64,000 nucleotides of DNA from Escherichia phage A7_1. Location: sequence record OP795442. One strand, given 5' to 3'. This document shows, in pieces, positions 462 through 63,170 of the stretch. The notes under the pieces are model-generated. The model did no database searches, was not told the origin of the DNA, and saw only the letters and a list, made by a program, of their open reading frames with translations. The position numbers and the translations under genes were made by a program. Position 1 is the stretch's first letter. Each line of letters begins with the position of its first letter.

Positions 462-713
462 ATGATCGAACAAATCAAAACTACGACGGCTAATGTAACG
501 GGTACAATATCGCACTTTATTAGTGATGAATCGCGGGGCGTTCCTTATTGTGCAGTACATGTAAACAAAAATGGCGACTACTGGTTAACGGCGTATGGAT
601 CTTATTCTTTCGGACGTAGTGCACACCAAAAGATCCTGGATAAAGTACAACCAACGGGTAAAAATATTACCGCTGAGATGTTTAATAAATCACTTGCAAA
701 GTTAAAAGCGTAA
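462..713 (+). CDS. hypothetical protein (83 aa)
   Basis: ORF with RBS GGAG upstream, downstream of promoter-hairpin cassette. Confidence 0.55.
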   Translation: MIEQIKTTTANVTGTISHFISDESRGVPYCAVHVNKNGDYWLTAYGSYSFGRSAHQKILDKVQPTGKNITAEMFNKSLAKLKA

Positions 714-753
714 AGTATAATACATCACATCAGGCGGGGAGTGTTTCCCCGCC
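694..753 (+). promoter_or_regulatory. promoter (TTGCAA 694-699, TATAAT 716-721) plus hairpin GGCGGGGA/TCCCCGCC 733-753
   Basis: Consensus -10, perfect 8-bp stem just after predicted start site. Confidence 0.55.
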
Positions 754-774
754 ACAAAATGAAAGGCCAACAAA

Positions 775-954
775 ATGAAATCAAGCATGATGGTAGCGAC
801 TGTAAACATTATCATTGGTAACGGAACTGGACACCACGAAATCATAAAAAACAAGGCTTACTCTATTAGCTCCCTCAAAAACGACATGCGTTTATCTTTG
901 GGCCAAATCCGCGCTTACTTTCGTGAAGGCTATCAGAAAAAAGTAGCAAATTAA
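775..954 (+). CDS. hypothetical small protein (59 aa), absent from ORF track
   Basis: ATG 775 to TAA 952-954 read codon by codon; preceded by promoter-hairpin cassette. Confidence 0.45.
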   Translation: MKSSMMVATVNIIIGNGTGHHEIIKNKAYSISSLKNDMRLSLGQIRAYFREGYQKKVAN

Positions 955-957
955 TAG

Positions 958-986
958 TTGACGCAAAGGTCATTTTAATTTAATCT
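958..986 (+). promoter_or_regulatory. sigma70-like promoter (TTGACG 958-963, TAATCT 981-986)
   Basis: 17-nt spacer; precedes RBS GAGG and ATG 1015. Confidence 0.4.
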
Positions 987-1014
987 ATAACAAATCGACA
1001 AATGAGGCATAATC

Positions 1015-1317
1015 ATGTTTACCAAAGCAAATGAGTATTTCTTTTTAGATTTACTTGATGAAAGTATCTTTGTAGCTATGGGCAAAAAGTCAATGGTCTT
1101 TAAACGCAAAAAAGATAATGGTGACTTTGAAGATAGCGAAGCCGTGCTAACAGTCAAGGAAGGTAAAGATCCTGCAACGTCTGTTTTAATCTACACCTTG
1201 ACCAACGGCGGTGAAGTTATCGCATCAGGGAGTAGCCATCCGATCCCAAAATCGGAAGTGAACACTGTAATTATTGGTTTTGTTGCAGCTTGTTTCTACG
1301 AGGAAAAAAGCAAATGA
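1015..1317 (+). CDS. hypothetical protein (100 aa)
   Basis: ORF with RBS and upstream promoter. Confidence 0.55.
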   Translation: MFTKANEYFFLDLLDESIFVAMGKKSMVFKRKKDNGDFEDSEAVLTVKEGKDPATSVLIYTLTNGGEVIASGSSHPIPKSEVNTVIIGFVAACFYEEKSK

Positions 1318-1478
1318 ATCCGCAAAATTTATCTTATGTAAACTGGCCCAATAAGGCTGAGAAGAAAGAAAACTTGAAACGTCTGGTTAACTTTTATCGT
1401 GAAGCTGGTCATAGTAAAGTAACAGCGGTTAAAATGGCAAAGCGCCACCTTAACAAGCCAAGTACTAAACTAATTTAA
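1314..1478 (+). CDS. hypothetical small protein (54 aa)
   Basis: ATG 1314 overlaps upstream stop TGA 1315-1317 (ATGA coupling); RBS-like AGGAAAAAAG. Confidence 0.4.
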   Translation: MNPQNLSYVNWPNKAEKKENLKRLVNFYREAGHSKVTAVKMAKRHLNKPSTKLI

Positions 1479-1486
1479 AAAACTTG

Positions 1487-1515
1487 TTGACGTTGGCTTG
1501 TGCCGTACCTATAAT
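1487..1515 (+). promoter_or_regulatory. sigma70-like promoter (TTGACG 1487-1492, TATAAT 1510-1515)
   Basis: Consensus -10 with 17-nt spacer. Confidence 0.6.
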
Positions 1516-1550
1516 GGACGGCATAGGCAAACGAAATAGGATTTATAGAA

Positions 1551-1757
1551 ATGAAAAAGAAAATTGTATATAATATTATTAGCTTTATCGCAACTATCCT
1601 CCTGGCTATTGCTGGTCTATCTTTGATTGTTGCAGTAGGATCTCTGTTTCCTGGGGCAATAAGTATTAGCATAGCTTTCGCCGCATTGTCTGTTTTTACA
1701 GGGTATGCAGGGATTAAAGTTACTTACTGGTCAGAAGATTACAAATATTCAAACTAA
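1551..1757 (+). CDS. hypothetical membrane protein (68 aa)
   Basis: Two hydrophobic segments; ORF behind consensus promoter. Confidence 0.55.
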   Translation: MKKKIVYNIISFIATILLAIAGLSLIVAVGSLFPGAISISIAFAALSVFTGYAGIKVTYWSEDYKYSN

Positions 1758-1770
1758 ATTGAGGTGTAAG

Positions 1771-1920
1771 ATGTACAAGCTATTAACCTGGGAAACAGAA
1801 TCATCGTCACCGATCAGCCGGACCTTTTTTGATTTGTGCACGGCTTACAGGCTGGCAAAGGGAGGATATCATAAGGCCCAAATCATTGATGAATTTAATG
1901 TTATCCTTTATGAATTTTAA
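1771..1920 (+). CDS. hypothetical small protein (49 aa)
   Basis: ATG 1771 with RBS GAGGTG, 13 nt after upstream stop; track ORF 1705..1920 starts inside upstream gene. Confidence 0.3.
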   Translation: MYKLLTWETESSSPISRTFFDLCTAYRLAKGGYHKAQIIDEFNVILYEF

Positions 1921-1967
1921 TCAATTCATACACTTAAAAGAAAGTTAGAAAAAGTTTTAAAAAGTGG

Positions 1968-2020
1968 TTGCAACAGGTATTGGATAGTAGTATAGTACTT
2001 TCAACGGGGCGAGATGGCCC
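1968..2020 (+). promoter_or_regulatory. promoter (TTGCAA 1968-1973, TATAGT 1991-1996) plus short hairpin 2007-2020
   Basis: 17-nt spacer; GGGC/GCCC stem downstream. Confidence 0.45.
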
Positions 2021-2049
2021 AAAACGAAAAAACTTGAAAGGTGATTATC

Positions 2050-2142
2050 ATGATGGCAATTTTCTTAGTTTCTCTTCTGGTTGCTGTATGTTCTGCCACT
2101 GCTGCCGCTGTACTTTATGACACTCGCTACAATGAGGAATAA
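2050..2142 (+). CDS. hydrophobic micro-protein (30 aa), absent from ORF track
   Basis: ATG 2050, RBS AGGTG, TAA 2140-2142; sequence MMAIFLVSLLVAVCSATAAAVLYDTRYNEE. Confidence 0.3.
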   Translation: MMAIFLVSLLVAVCSATAAAVLYDTRYNEE

Positions 2143-2147
2143 TAAAA

Positions 2148-2366
2148 ATGAATATTGTCAACATTACAGGTAAGACCGAGATCCTTAAGAATCTTGCACC
2201 AGGTGAGTCCACCGTATGGATCTGCAAAGATGGAGAAGTAGAAAAACAAATGAGATTGTTTACCGCTATTTGTTGTCGGTTAAATATGAAAGTTACACAA
2301 ATCCGATCGATGATTGTTAGTGTGGGAAACATTCCGACTGAATGCATAATTCTTACAAAGATTTAA
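2148..2366 (+). CDS. hypothetical protein (72 aa)
   Basis: ORF 6 nt after upstream stop. Confidence 0.5.
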   Translation: MNIVNITGKTEILKNLAPGESTVWICKDGEVEKQMRLFTAICCRLNMKVTQIRSMIVSVGNIPTECIILTKI

Positions 2367-2373
2367 AAATAGC

Positions 2374-2401
2374 TTTACAACAACGATAAAATCAGTACAA
2401 T
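2374..2401 (+). promoter_or_regulatory. sigma70-like promoter (TTTACA 2374-2379, TACAAT 2396-2401)
   Basis: 16-nt spacer. Confidence 0.45.
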
Positions 2402-2442
2402 ACAAATCAGGCAATAAAGCCAACTAAAGAAAGGTAAAGACC

Positions 2443-2682
2443 ATGCAAACTATTATCACTAAGTTTCTTCCTCCTACGAATACCCGTGGCGCTCGCATCA
2501 AAGCAAAATGTTGGTTGACAGATATCACTATCGCCTATCCGGTAGCCGAGATCAACGAAGCCCATAAACTGGCGGCAGAAGTGTTAATTACAAAATTGAA
2601 GATGACAACAGATATTGATTGGAAAATTGTTGCAAGTGGTGAAACACCGGACGGATCAGGTTATGCATTTATCATCAAATAA
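2443..2682 (+). CDS. hypothetical protein (79 aa)
   Basis: ORF with RBS AAAGGTAAAG. Confidence 0.55.
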   Translation: MQTIITKFLPPTNTRGARIKAKCWLTDITIAYPVAEINEAHKLAAEVLITKLKMTTDIDWKIVASGETPDGSGYAFIIK

Positions 2683-2685
2683 TTG

Positions 2686-2741
2686 TTGACAACAGCAAAG
2701 TAAGCGCGTAGTATTCATTTTACAGGGGCGACAAGCGCCCC
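2686..2741 (+). promoter_or_regulatory. promoter (TTGACA 2686-2691, TAGTAT 2709-2714) plus hairpin GGGGCG/CGCCCC 2725-2741
   Basis: 17-nt spacer; 6-bp GC stem after start site. Confidence 0.55.
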
Positions 2742-2750
2742 GCTTATCAG

Positions 2751-3032
2751 ATGAGACAAATCATGAAAATATCATTGGACGTTGCAATCAAGGCCATCGA
2801 ATCCGGTTACACTCTGGTTAAGGACGATAAGGCTAAAATCGTGCATCACGTTAACAAGGAAACAGGCGAAAGCATGATCACATATAAAGCCGCCTACTTT
2901 CTCCAATCAGTAGCAGATCCGCGCCTGCAACGCCAGGTTACGGCGGCTATCGCTAAAAAATTATGTGCTTTACAAGGTACAAGTTTTAACGAGATCGCCC
3001 CGTGTTTTGATTGGTCAAGCTTGAAAAAATAG
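2751..3032 (+). CDS. hypothetical protein (93 aa)
   Basis: ORF after cassette; start could be ATG 2751 or 2763. Confidence 0.55.
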   Translation: MRQIMKISLDVAIKAIESGYTLVKDDKAKIVHHVNKETGESMITYKAAYFLQSVADPRLQRQVTAAIAKKLCALQGTSFNEIAPCFDWSSLKK

Positions 3033-3033
3033 T

Positions 3034-3091
3034 TTGACAATACGCAGTTATCTGGTAAAGTGTACTACATAGCGCGGAAATACTTCCCGCC
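3034..3091 (+). promoter_or_regulatory. promoter (TTGACA 3034-3039) plus imperfect GC hairpin about 3072-3091
   Basis: Weak -10 AAAGTG at 17-nt spacing, then conserved CATAG and GC stem. Confidence 0.45.
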
Positions 3092-3109
3092 ATTAATGAG
3101 GATAATTTA

Positions 3110-3247
3110 ATGAAAACTTTCAACGCAACAGCCTCGACAATTGGTTATATTATTACAGTGCAAGCCGTAGATCTGGTAGCAGCAGCAAACAAGATTAAAA
3201 GAATGATCCCGCTAGGTAGTGAATTTTCCGTTTGGGAAGTAAAATAA
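3110..3247 (+). CDS. hypothetical small protein (45 aa), absent from ORF track
   Basis: ATG 3110, RBS GAGG, TAA 3245-3247. Confidence 0.4.
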   Translation: MKTFNATASTIGYIITVQAVDLVAAANKIKRMIPLGSEFSVWEVK

Positions 3248-3250
3248 TTC

Positions 3251-3312
3251 TTGACAATAGTTTGTTACTTGATAGAATGTATTTCGTAGGGCGGGGCAAT
3301 GGAGCAACGCCC
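3251..3312 (+). promoter_or_regulatory. promoter (TTGACA 3251-3256) plus hairpin GGGCG...CGCCC 3289-3312
   Basis: Same architecture as neighbouring cassettes. Confidence 0.45.
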
Positions 3313-3330
3313 ATTAATGAGGCTAGCATC

Positions 3331-3435
3331 ATGTTAGAGAAAATTTTCACGGTTGCAGTGGTTGGCCTGGCGTTATCGGTTGGAGTGGTTGCAACTATGG
3401 CTAATATGATCCTATCTTCCCACGGTATCGGTTAA
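3331..3435 (+). CDS. hydrophobic micro-protein (34 aa)
   Basis: ATG 3331 after hairpin; track ORF 3232..3435 starts upstream of the promoter in the same frame. Confidence 0.35.
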   Translation: MLEKIFTVAVVGLALSVGVVATMANMILSSHGIG

Positions 3436-3447
3436 GAGAGACACATC

Positions 3448-3834
3448 ATGAAAACAGAAATCATTATTGAAATCATCAACGGTTACAAAGAGGCTTTTAT
3501 CTTTGCTGAATCAGCCAGGAATCACGAAGGTGATTTTATAGATGACATGACTGATTATGATTTTTCAGATCAAGCCCAGCAACGGATCATTCGTGACGTG
3601 GCGGCTTTTTGTGACGCCAATGATGCCGCTATCTCTGAGGCAATGAGCGACGGCGCAACAGCCAACCAGATCGGGAATGATTTACATTTTACCCGTAACG
3701 GTCACAGCGTAGGCTTTTGGGATCGCCCTGAGATATACACTACTAACACGGCTAACCGTTTGACCAATGCCGCTAAATTTATGCCAAACGTGTCAGCCTA
3801 CATTGGGAAAGATAATCTGATTTATATTGAATAA
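3448..3834 (+). CDS. hypothetical acidic protein (128 aa)
   Basis: ORF with RBS AAGAGAG. Confidence 0.55.
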   Translation: MKTEIIIEIINGYKEAFIFAESARNHEGDFIDDMTDYDFSDQAQQRIIRDVAAFCDANDAAISEAMSDGATANQIGNDLHFTRNGHSVGFWDRPEIYTTNTANRLTNAAKFMPNVSAYIGKDNLIYIE

Positions 3835-61420: not shown

Positions 61421-61492
61421 GGCCCTGTAGCTGGACGGTTCAAGCAAGCGACTCATAATCGCCAGACGGTGGTTCGATTCCACCCAGGGCCA
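61421..61492 (+). tRNA. tRNA with CAU anticodon (Met, or Ile2-type)
   Basis: 7-bp acceptor GGCCCTG/CAGGGCC, loop CTCATAA, T-arm GGTGGTTCGATTCCACC, encoded CCA. Confidence 0.8.
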
Positions 61493-61628
61493 CCATATGA
61501 AGTCGGGTCGCTCCCGATAAGTCGTCGGACTGATGTTCCCTGACTACGAGTTCCCTCAACGATAACGACGTAGATCACAGCAGAAACGGCGCACCCTATT
61601 TCATTTCTTAATACATTTCAATAAGTTC

Positions 61629-61657
61629 TTGACATAATCCTATTATACTGCTAATAT
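61629..61657 (+). promoter_or_regulatory. sigma70-like promoter (TTGACA 61629-61634, TAATAT 61652-61657)
   Basis: 17-nt spacer. Confidence 0.55.
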
Positions 61658-61678
61658 AGTTATATCGACTGAATTGAG

Positions 61679-62059
61679 GTGTTTATGGCTAAAGCTGAAA
61701 TCGTTACTCGAAAACGCGGTCGGCCTACTACAGAGGAAAGCATTGCAATCAATACTGAGAGAGCAATTCTTCATGCTCGTTCCGAGTTTGCAAGACTTAC
61801 TCCTCAAGCAATTAAAACTCTGGAAGGTCTACTGACTTCCGGTACAGAGAAAGTTAAAGAAACTACTGCGAAGTATATTCTTGAGCAAGCTGAAAAGGCA
61901 AACAATCTGTACACGATGGAAGATAATGAAGAGGATCTGGCAGGAGGAACTACTTCTGCAAATTCAGAAACTCATCAAGGCCCTTCTGATGCATTTAAAG
62001 ATGCTATTCCATTAACTACTCAGATTCGTGAGTATAAAATGGCAGAAGGTGAAGATTAA
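61679..62059 (+). CDS. hypothetical protein (126 aa) with N-terminal RKRGRP basic motif
   Basis: ORF with RBS GAGGTG. Confidence 0.5.
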   Translation: MFMAKAEIVTRKRGRPTTEESIAINTERAILHARSEFARLTPQAIKTLEGLLTSGTEKVKETTAKYILEQAEKANNLYTMEDNEEDLAGGTTSANSETHQGPSDAFKDAIPLTTQIREYKMAEGED

Positions 62060-62297
62060 GGCTCGCAAGGGCCTTTACTAAGAAGTTCTCTTTAAGGTAG
62101 TTGCTTGGTGTAATTTTTCGGCAGATGGCTGCAACCATCCTATCGATAACTTATAGTTAGTGCTGCAAACACTGGCTACCTTAAAGAGAATTTAACTCGT
62201 CGAATAAGGAAGATGCTGATCTCAAAGTGAGGTCACTTACCGCAAGGGGTGTGCATAGACTCCCGCTTCCGAATAGACTATGTGGCGAGATGTATTT

Positions 62298-62376
62298 GGG
62301 GACGTGGCAGAGCGGTCGAATGCGCCTGACTGTAAATTAGGTATCCCACACGGTGGTTCGAATCCATCCGGCCCCA
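62298..62376 (+). tRNA. tRNA-Tyr (GUA), class II
   Basis: Loop CTGTAAA, D-loop GAGCGG-type, T-arm GGTGGTTCGAATCCATC, encoded CCA; one A-G mismatch in acceptor stem. Confidence 0.65.
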
Positions 62377-62382
62377 CCAAAT

Positions 62383-62455
62383 TTTCCGTTAGGCTTACAG
62401 GATAAGATTCCCACAACGTATCGTTGTGATACTGGTTCGAATCCAGTACGGAAAC
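62383..62455 (+). ncRNA. tRNA-like element with non-canonical anticodon arm
   Basis: Perfect acceptor and T-arm, but central 7-bp hairpin CACAACG-TAT-CGTTGTG replaces a canonical anticodon loop. Confidence 0.3.
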
Positions 62456-62582
62456 CAAATTAAGCCGTGATGTGATGTAATCACTGACCTCTTTGAAGGA
62501 TCATGGCATTTTATACAAAAACCTGAATAATTTAGGTTTTAATTCCTGGGGTTCGTAGCCCTATTACTAAGAGGACTTAACT

Positions 62583-62792
62583 ATGTTTACTATTAAAATT
62601 ATTGATATCGATGGAAATGAGACTGGTGTTTCAACAAGGCACTATAGATGGTACTCAAAAATGAATATTTTTGATCTGGATGGTGGTGAATCTGTTTCTG
62701 TACCACCAAAAAGTCGTGCTTATGTAATGAATGACAAAGGAATAACCATCGGTAGATACACAAATACAGCGGATCAACGCGTTCTTAATTAA
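62583..62792 (+). CDS. hypothetical protein (69 aa)
   Basis: ORF with RBS AAGAGGA; ends 1 nt before tRNA-Gly. Confidence 0.45.
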   Translation: MFTIKIIDIDGNETGVSTRHYRWYSKMNIFDLDGGESVSVPPKSRAYVMNDKGITIGRYTNTADQRVLN

Positions 62793-62793
62793 A

Positions 62794-62865
<72 letters not shown>

Positions 62866-62967
62866 CCAAACCTCTATCCATCTGACGCGTTTATGGGGTT
62901 GACCTGATCACTCTTCTCCTAATCTCGTGTGAAGACACCATGATTGTTGGGATGGATAAACTTCTTT

Positions 62968-63039
62968 TGGGGATTAGCCAAGCGGTAAGGCATCGGATTT
63001 TGATTCCGACATTCACTGGTTCGATTCCAGTATCCCCAG
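62968..63039 (+). tRNA. tRNA-Gln (UUG)
   Basis: Perfect stems; loop TTTTGAT; U1-A72 start as in E. coli tRNA-Gln (from memory); encoded CCA. Confidence 0.9.
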
Positions 63040-63047
63040 CCAATTAA

Positions 63048-63121
<74 letters not shown>

Positions 63122-63170
63122 CCAATTTACCCTCATATAATAACAATAATATAATCTCCTCTCCTTCGCC

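Follow-up and report, generated by a model that had tools for sequence, protein, structure and literature searches.

Four probable micro-genes with promoter and leader stem-loop cassettes in the Vequintavirinae coliphage A7_1, one of them an overlooked gene for a predicted membrane micro-protein

Small single-pass proteins of bacteria such as AcrZ, MgtS, KdpF and CydX regulate larger membrane complexes. In phage T4 the protein Ac is thought to act on the AcrAB-TolC pump (PMC13250531). With regard to gene arrangement, the closest described system is the promoter-early stem-loop (PeSL) of the T4-type phages RB49/phi1, PST and nt-1, for which both promoter and terminator activity and recombination between PeSLs have been shown (Arbiol et al. 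2010, PMC2839356; Comeau et al. 2014, PMC4122927). Here we describe four open reading frames (ORFs) of Escherichia phage A7_1 (sequence record OP795442), found between positions 775 and 3435 of the 64,000 nucleotides (nt) that were analysed and that are called the window in what follows. They are named A (775..954, 59 amino acids (aa)), B (2050..2142, 30 aa), C (3110..3247, 45 aa) and D (3331..3435, 34 aa), and all lie on the plus strand. The PeSLs and the window have in common a strong sigma-70-like promoter, a G/C stem-loop, a Shine-Dalgarno sequence (SD) and an ATG placed before small orphan genes in a hyperplastic region.

By nucleotide comparison the window is that of a Septuagintavirus (Vequintavirinae) coliphage. 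Over the first 6 kb its identity is 99.5% with Escherichia phage A5-4 (OP744025), which together with A73 is placed in the genus Septuagintavirus of the Vequintavirinae, Certrevirus being the nearest genus (PMC11370258). Against A73, UPEC06 and vB_EcoM-LTH01 (LTH01) the same 6 kb are 91-96% identical over a coverage of just 68-84%, broken into 4-5 pieces, and the gene sets differ among the close relatives across this region.

An ORF of 30-59 codons is not in itself beyond chance, because 83 ORFs of at least 20 aa are listed within the first 5 kb. The four ORFs are more than chance because their substitutions follow a codon-position pattern. The variable sites at codon positions 1/2/3 number 29/16/45 in A, 1/1/8 in B, 4/3/22 in C and 17/8/24 in D, and the ratio of nonsynonymous to synonymous changes (pN/pS) in the proposed frame amounts to 0.38 in A, 0.07 in B, 0.14 in C and 0.29 in D. 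As a control, every one of the 46 ORFs with 20 aa or more in positions 1-2690 was scored likewise for codon-position bias; those that reached P<0.01 were B, five annotated genes and one ORF that is the antisense shadow of such a gene, and no others. Judged from these patterns all four frames are under purifying selection and conserved in relatives, and A, B, C and D are very probably genuine protein-coding micro-genes. A first-pass annotation of the same DNA had proposed them with coordinates, lengths and translations that all proved correct, and had named missing conservation of the frames in relatives, along with missing ribosome footprints, as grounds against them; the conservation is present.

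The first-pass annotation had also described the four as missing from the ORF track. The absence was an artefact of a 60-aa cut-off: A, C and D are already annotated, and B is the single gene of the four that was truly overlooked. The exact sequences of A, C and D are present in public protein collections, and A5-4, like many further GenBank records, lists all three as hypothetical proteins. In searches with the PHROG hidden Markov models (HMMs), A matched phrog_7119 (E 3.7e-15, residues 1-51 of 59), C phrog_29854 (E 1.5e-34, 1-45 of 45) and D phrog_14631 (E 8.5e-22, 1-34 of 34), all three being families of unknown function. B was compared with PHROG and Pfam and no family was found, and none of its variants is present in a collection of 15 billion proteins.

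Two of the products, B and D, had been called hydrophobic, and their 19-aa Kyte-Doolittle maxima agree with this (2.55 at residues 4-22 of B and 2.34 at residues 5-23 of D, against 0.79 in A and 1.47 in C). Their grand averages of hydropathy are 1.08 and 1.47, respectively. When a small single-pass protein is taken to have no more than about 50 aa and a single hydrophobic stretch of 19 aa or longer with a Kyte-Doolittle value above 1.6, B and D fall within this class and A and C outside it. B and D are thus predicted to be single-pass membrane micro-proteins.

Each ORF had further been credited with a promoter, a ribosome binding site and a hairpin of its own. Sigma-70-like sites matching 9 to 11 of the 12 consensus positions were found 5' of all four, and an SD lies 5-8 nt before each ATG. 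The first 6 kb hold 33 promoter-like sites, compared with 18.2 +/- 3.5 expected from shuffles. A leader stem-loop is placed between the -10 box and the SD of every ORF, its strength being variable: the hairpin claim stands for A, where the stem is strong, and for D, where it is moderate (z -1.9), but not in the same measure for B, with a stem of 4 bp, and for C (z -0.93). A terminator scan found none at the four stems, and the U-tract is absent after them.

The cassettes also appear as movable units. Close relatives differ by gains and losses of whole cassettes, and two chimeras were found. In VEcB (1004-1088) the promoter of C of the window (region 3025-3330) is fused to the D hairpin upstream of D, and in PsgM04F (744-828) the D hairpin is fused to the promoter of the 93-aa gene of the window (2686-2714; region 2678-2750). 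The chimeric junctions fall between the -10 box and the stem-loop.

Micro-gene B starts at an ATG and encodes a hydrophobic helix at residues ~3-22 followed by the polar tail YDTRYNEE; the mechanical ORF list gives it from GTG 2041 with 33 aa. Its promoter (TTGCAA-17-TATAGT, 1968..1996) has both hexamers identical in five of five genomes. It is followed by a weak leader hairpin (GGGC/GCCC, 4 bp, 2007..2020; leader -12.1 kcal/mol, z -1.97) and by the SD AAAGGTGA (2037..2044), which lies 5 nt 5' of the ATG and is kept in relatives. The final codons of B contain the SD (GAGGA, 2133-2137) of the next gene (ATG 2148). A second, outer pairing is possible in this leader, 7 bp between 1998-2004 and 2034-2040 (CUUUCAA/UUGAAAG), which would cover the 5' edge of the SD of B. 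In LTH01 a substitution and a 1-nt deletion disrupt this pairing, and the helix may therefore not be functional.

B itself was found solely in four close relatives. Three of them carry no annotation for it and the fourth, UPEC06, has it in a wrong frame; there a 55-aa wrong-frame ORF is annotated over B (1967-2134 of the UPEC06 record). Among the five genomes 10 of the 93 nt are variable, eight of the 10 at third codon positions (P 3.4e-3), and nine of the 11 substitution events are synonymous (P 1.2e-4).

Moreover, a B-type ORF exists in the nearest genus. A local tblastn search detected a 25-aa ORF, MSVIFLVSVFVAIASSTAICI(E/K)(L/M)G(Y/W), in Pectobacterium phages phiTE and DU_PP_I, and a search of the phage collection extended it to 26 records, all of them Certrevirus-type phages and Salmonella phage SSBI34. 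It has no feature in 17 of the 26 records, and five have a 156-nt extended coding sequence (CDS) instead. Its signals are a promoter of the type TTGAC(G/T)-17-TATACT and the SD AAAGAGAG, and its stop lies 3-6 nt 5' of the next gene, the stop of B being likewise close. Its variable sites number 10/2/20 (P 7e-4), and the five differences that separate phiTE from DU_PP_I are synonymous without exception.

The Certrevirus ORF (MSVIFLVSVFVAIASSTAICIKLGW/Y) resembles B in having its own sigma-70-like promoter, in being under purifying selection and in belonging to a sister genus, and the two have the N-terminal motif M-x-x-IFLVS-x-x-VA-x-x-S-x-TA in common, with 11 of 21 residues identical. It is, however, five residues shorter and ends in a basic/aromatic tail (KLGW) where B has the acidic YDTRYNEE; it also usually precedes a phrog_1915 homologue, whereas B precedes a phrog_5988 gene. 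With an HMM built from seven sequences of the 25-aa type, only B scored significantly (E 7.5e-4) when the 2,472 six-frame segments of the window were searched, while D and the other hydrophobic ORFs of the window do not score. In 20,000 shuffles that preserved composition, neither B nor its hydrophobic segment by itself ever scored as well as the true sequence, and the likeness therefore rests on residue order and not on composition. With moderate confidence, and from sequence likeness, B and the Certrevirus peptide can be regarded as one family of 25-30-aa membrane micro-proteins of two sister genera. B and D were also considered as paralogues and this was rejected: about five of 20 helix residues are identical by eye, and D is not among the matches of the B-type HMM.

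A phrog_1915 homologue (128-130 aa, ..R(N/Q)GH(S/G)VG(F/Y)WDR..) stands directly 3' of a micro-ORF with a transmembrane segment in two lineages. The peptide 5' of it is D in the window (3331-3834) and the unrelated B-type one in Certrevirus and SSBI34. The two genes may form a recurring module.

Micro-gene D (ATG start, one hydrophobic helix) was found at the DNA level in 200 records of the genera Vequintavirus, Phapecoctavirus and Justusliebigvirus. Its C-terminal half, ATM(A/S)NMILS(S/F)(H/N)GIG, is near-invariant as far as the 50%-identical homologue of rV5. A search of 1.84 billion protein representatives gave two clusters only, and D is therefore taken to be without a wider family. The promoter of D (TTGACA-16-TAGAAT, 3251..3278) matches 11 of 12 positions in the promoter scan and has an extended -10 TG; it is followed by the leader hairpin GGGCG ... 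CGCCC (3289..3312) and by the SD TGAGG (3318..3322), 8 nt 5' of the ATG and kept in relatives. Hairpin and SD are near-constant behind at least four different promoter halves. In UPEC06/LTH01 and in rV5 the stem is replaced by stems of different sequence, and the structure is kept.

The start of D is annotated in different ways. The mechanical ORF list gives it from TTG 3232 with 67 aa. It is a 105-nt CDS in slur12, FV3, VEcB, EduardKellenberger, EmilieFrey, UPEC06, LTH01 and PsgM04F, has a longer annotated N-terminus in A5-4, SYGMH1 and rV5, and is unannotated in phi92, phAPEC8_ev052, phiWec186, phiWec188 and anhysbys. In A5-4 (CDS A54_94, 52 aa), and likewise in SYGMH1, the start is set at 3277. 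The 34-aa reading from 3331, which was that of the first-pass annotation, fits the comparative data better and is considered right because the ATG at 3277 is inside the -10 hexamer and because an in-frame start 5' of the conserved ATG is lacking in seven of the 19 genomes that were compared.

Micro-gene A (ATG start) encodes a soluble protein with full-length homologues in 36 phage records, at amino acid identities down to ~50%. These belong to Certrevirus phages of Pectobacterium, Cronobacter and Enterobacter, to Salmonella phage SSBI34 and to the phiWec Phapecoctaviruses, and the conserved core reads V-N/D-I-I/V-I-G-N-G-x-G-x-H ... L-K/Q-x-D-x-R-L ... Q-I-R/K-x-Y/F-F-R. The promoter of A (TTGCAA-16-TATAAT, 694..721, 10/12 match) overlaps the 3' end of the upstream gene (462-713). 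The leader hairpin (GGCGGGGA / TCCCCGCC, 733..753) lies at ~+5 to +25 of the predicted transcript and has a GC stem of 8 bp with a 5-nt loop (-17.7 kcal/mol, z -2.75). The SD, GAAAGG (761..766), was read off the sequence 8 nt 5' of the ATG. An AlphaFold model of A shows a beta-hairpin and two helices at low confidence (predicted local distance difference test (pLDDT) 60) and was left out of the fold search. In A73 an indel close to window position 937 shortens the homologue (775-945) to 56 aa, and the last three residues of A are therefore dispensable. The label 'putative lipoprotein' carried by the CB7 homologue was rejected for A: the Cys of Certrevirus GNGCG is Thr here (GNGTG), and a hydrophobic signal segment is absent too, the best window being 0.79.

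Micro-gene C (ATG start, 54 records) also encodes a soluble protein. Its promoter (TTGACA-16-TAAAGT with an extended -10 TG, 3034..3061, from the promoter scan) is followed by a weak, bulged leader hairpin (3072..3090, -7.8 kcal/mol) and by the SD GAGGA (3098..3102), read off the sequence 7 nt 5' of the ATG. The model of C is a beta-beta-alpha-beta mini-domain of fair confidence (pLDDT 76). The word-indexed protein search gave close relatives of A and C only, and the alignments behind the structures are consequently shallow. In Enterobacter phage FENT2 (1001-1138) a 45-aa ORF is 38% identical to C and keeps the GYI / FSVW..K positions. It lies on the strand opposite all the PHANOTATE-called genes of that record; either the local annotation strand is wrong or the match is spurious, and this ORF served only as a divergent sequence for the C profile.

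The cassettes are each ordered as host-type sigma-70 promoter, GC-rich leader stem-loop, SD and ATG, with one small gene each, an order that would give every gene autonomous expression, presumably early, via the unmodified host RNA polymerase. Swapping, insertion and deletion of gene cassettes would take place at their short homologies. B and D would be inserted in the host inner membrane soon after infection, where a larger membrane protein would be bound by the conserved helix faces (IFLVS..VA..S.TA in B and ATMxNMILS..GIG in D). In this way they would modulate a host membrane complex, or the entry of a second phage, rather than cause generic membrane damage. Recognition of a partner helix is favoured for both because a single helix is conserved in a sequence-specific manner while its context varies. 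The suggestion that B and D are host-takeover or membrane-targeting effectors is plausible, and superinfection exclusion is a possible role. A and C would be small soluble proteins, most likely binding a host or phage macromolecule.

Other explanations were weighed against this proposal. It is very improbable that B, perhaps along with others of the four, is an ORF present by chance in a leader without coding function and is conserved through a regulatory DNA or RNA element or an overlapping frame. ORFs of this size are abundant, as counted above, B is called in one GenBank relative only and in another frame, and it is overlapped by a 99-aa antisense ORF (2048-2347, minus strand) and by a 50-aa ORF in another frame (1968-2120). 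A non-coding element would, however, lack the 3-nt periodicity of the substitutions in B. The 50-aa frame, that of the UPEC06 annotation, takes these substitutions at its first positions, varies in length and sequence and is frameshifted in LTH01 by a 1-nt deletion; this indel, at 2036, leaves B intact. The antisense ORF is a shadow of the 72-aa plus-strand gene (2148-2366), with which it has third codon positions in common. It is open in five of five genomes and its variable sites count 1/12/30, the 12 being mostly those of B, which fall on its second positions. In addition, the homologous 25-aa ORF of Certrevirus shows the same substitution pattern independently. It could also be argued that B and D serve as leader or coupling ORFs, the translation of which would open the gene behind them or bring ribosomes to it, while the peptide itself would not matter. 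The stop of B lies 5 nt 5' of the next ATG with the SD of that gene in its last codons, the junction TAATAAAATG is identical in LTH01, phiTE and F1M1E, the stop of D lies 12 nt 5' of the next ATG, and both peptide types occur directly 5' of phrog_1915 homologues in different lineages. Nevertheless the amino acids are kept, as seen in the pN/pS of both and in the C-terminal 14 residues of D, near-invariant to rV5, and length and composition are those of transmembrane helices. The same peptide is retained before differing genes, B-type ORFs preceding 72-aa, 130-aa or 143-aa genes and D a 71-aa or 128-aa gene, by phage. A role as pure leader or coupling ORFs is distinctly unlikely for B and D, the peptide being kept while promoter and downstream neighbour change. 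Coupling and peptide function may coexist, and translational coupling may be an added role of B because its final codons hold the SD of the next gene. It is unlikely, too, that B and/or D are membrane-damaging toxins, type-I-toxin-like or holin/antiholin-like, which depolarise the host for shut-off or lysis timing. Toxins of the Hok/TisB/Ibs type and small holins are comparable to them in size and hydrophobicity, and strong host-type promoters drive both genes. On the other hand, generic pore-formers tolerate drift whereas the motif of D is near-invariant, and the sole annotated lysis enzyme in A5-4 (peptidoglycan hydrolase A54_159) is ~32 kb away on the other strand. The adjacent endolysin or spanin genes of a holin or lysis cassette were not found beside B or D; an antisense RNA or a second lysis partner was likewise not seen there, no search having been aimed at them.

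For C, a relationship to the anti-CRISPR AcrIE2 (PDB 7CHQ/7KIX) was considered, in which C would be a half-size relative inhibiting the type I-E Cascade complex of E. coli. If true, few known anti-CRISPRs would be as small as C, which would also be, to our knowledge, the first protein of the AcrIE2 type reported outside Pseudomonas. C has about half the length of AcrIE2, and no score between the two is significant once database size is counted (phmmer E 0.9; hhalign probability 16%). The AcrIE2 match is gone when the C profile includes the divergent FENT2 homologue, with none at E up to 10, and in a Foldseek search with the C model AcrIE2 is not in the top 50. T7 Gp2 (PDB 2WNM/4LK0) came second in that search (E 1.5), a match that is not statistically significant; T7 Gp2 is acidic, whereas C has a net charge of ~+2 by residue count. 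Mini-folds of the beta-beta-alpha-beta kind recur widely, eL20, PaaB and Gp2 being at similar Z. That C is an AcrIE2 relative is accordingly most unlikely, the weak signal serving as a lead only, and the same holds for the view that coliphages of three genera use such a minimal relative against the type I-E system of E. coli. The reading in which the four are real micro-genes with cassettes of their own, B and D encoding single-pass membrane proteins and A and C soluble binders, is regarded as likely. Several points weigh against it. The hairpins of B and C are weak and the promoter-hairpin cassette is therefore not uniform; in phi92 and EmilieFrey D has neither promoter nor hairpin of its own, which means that its autonomy is not universal. 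The close-relative evidence for B consists of five genomes with 10 variable sites, and its link to Certrevirus spans 21 residues of a hydrophobic helix. None of the four matches in Pfam, A, B and D have no match in a sequence search of the PDB, and nothing in these searches is significant. The literature searched holds no transcript, ribosome-footprint, peptide, phenotype or knock-out data for A-D; the early timing of the four genes is deduced from the sigma-70-type promoters only, and we infer translation, membrane insertion and all targets of the products.

From position 1 to ~8,700 the window consists of one block of small same-strand genes, each annotated 'hypothetical protein', and A, B, C and D each occupy gaps between genes of the same strand. 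Beyond this block, nucleotide-metabolism and replication genes are found on the opposite strand. Where the plus- and minus-strand blocks meet (~7790-9620; A5-4 89433-91264) there are two stretches of ~0.7 kb without an annotated gene. Within the block, a 68-aa protein (MKKKIVYNIISFIATILLAIAGLSLIVAVGSLFPGAISISIAFAALSVFTGYAG..., 1551-1757) has two predicted hydrophobic segments and is a third small membrane protein; it belongs to no PHROG or Pfam family, and its codon-position counts are 5/2/13, with a third-position bias. The adjacent 49-aa gene (1771-1920; DUF7170, phrog_4653), unlike its neighbours, lacks the third-position excess among the five close genomes, with a count of 5/3/5 scored on the longer ORF 1705-1920. 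Selection may be relaxed in this gene, or the sites may be too few. Five tRNA genes (Met, Tyr, Gly, Gln and Pro) are placed on the plus strand at 61421-63124, a number that agrees with the five tRNAs reported for Septuagintavirus genomes (PMC11370258).

Searches of viral contigs were anchored on two neighbour genes. The 72-aa gene gave no match, and the 128-aa gene gave mostly distant contigs, in which the micro-ORFs are absent. Genes C and/or D, with proteins 95-100% identical to the coliphage versions, are also present in three sets of records that bear the name of a non-enteric host: MG0656xx ('Campylobacter phage'), OR584014 ('Pseudomonas phage PsgM04F') and OP562383 ('Acinetobacter phage ABPW7'). 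This suggests host mislabelling or contamination. In the literature, the Septuagintavirus paper does not discuss promoters or small genes, the PhageMaP knock-out study (PMC11482910; phage Bas63, 161 genes) has nothing on these genes, and the daunorubicin paper (PMC13250531) mentions Vequintavirinae for drug sensitivity only.

The practical gain lies in annotation. In ~25 published Septuagintavirus and Certrevirus genomes a conserved micro-gene for a predicted membrane peptide of 25-30 aa has been systematically missed or mis-framed, and about half of the annotated records inspected either lack D, itself widespread, or give it a start that is impossible. Moreover, separate promoters for single peptides of 30-59 aa under purifying selection point to candidate specific host-interaction factors, for example regulators of membrane complexes, exclusion proteins or inhibitors of defence, and as self-contained cassettes these genes are easy to clone and test. 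Current concepts are unchanged: both PeSL-type shuffling and small orphan genes of the early class are familiar, and the findings would not surprise a specialist. Overall the locus is ordinary, with three catalogued proteins of unknown function and one modest new gene family, that of B.

Compared with known systems, A, C and D are members of their PHROGs, which occur in rV5-like/phAPEC8-like phages (e.g. rV5 ORF173 and FV3 ORF160), and nothing differs. B and D are like the small membrane regulators in having 25-50 aa, one hydrophobic helix and short polar ends, and helix-helix recognition is suggested for them because the conservation inside the helix is sequence-specific; with AcrZ, MgtS, KdpF, CydX and T4 Ac they have no sequence similarity. 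By analogy, B and D may be viral counterparts of these bacterial regulators that each dock on a specific host inner-membrane complex, an idea which is more probable than that of C as an AcrIE2 relative. The cassette architecture is, again by analogy, PeSL-like and of a known kind, in a lineage where no description of it was found. PeSLs and window cassettes are alike in the insertion and deletion of whole cassettes among relatives and in the occurrence of chimeric cassettes. In one subclass of PeSL the stem-loop also lies downstream of the -10 box (PMC2839356), as it always does in the window, where the stem is in the 5' leader of the mRNA and is in some cases weak. The lineages differ, Vequintavirinae here and T4-type myoviruses for the PeSLs, and because the host genome is of the Vequintavirinae and not T4-type, the cassettes of the window are best described as an analogue of the PeSL and not as a member.

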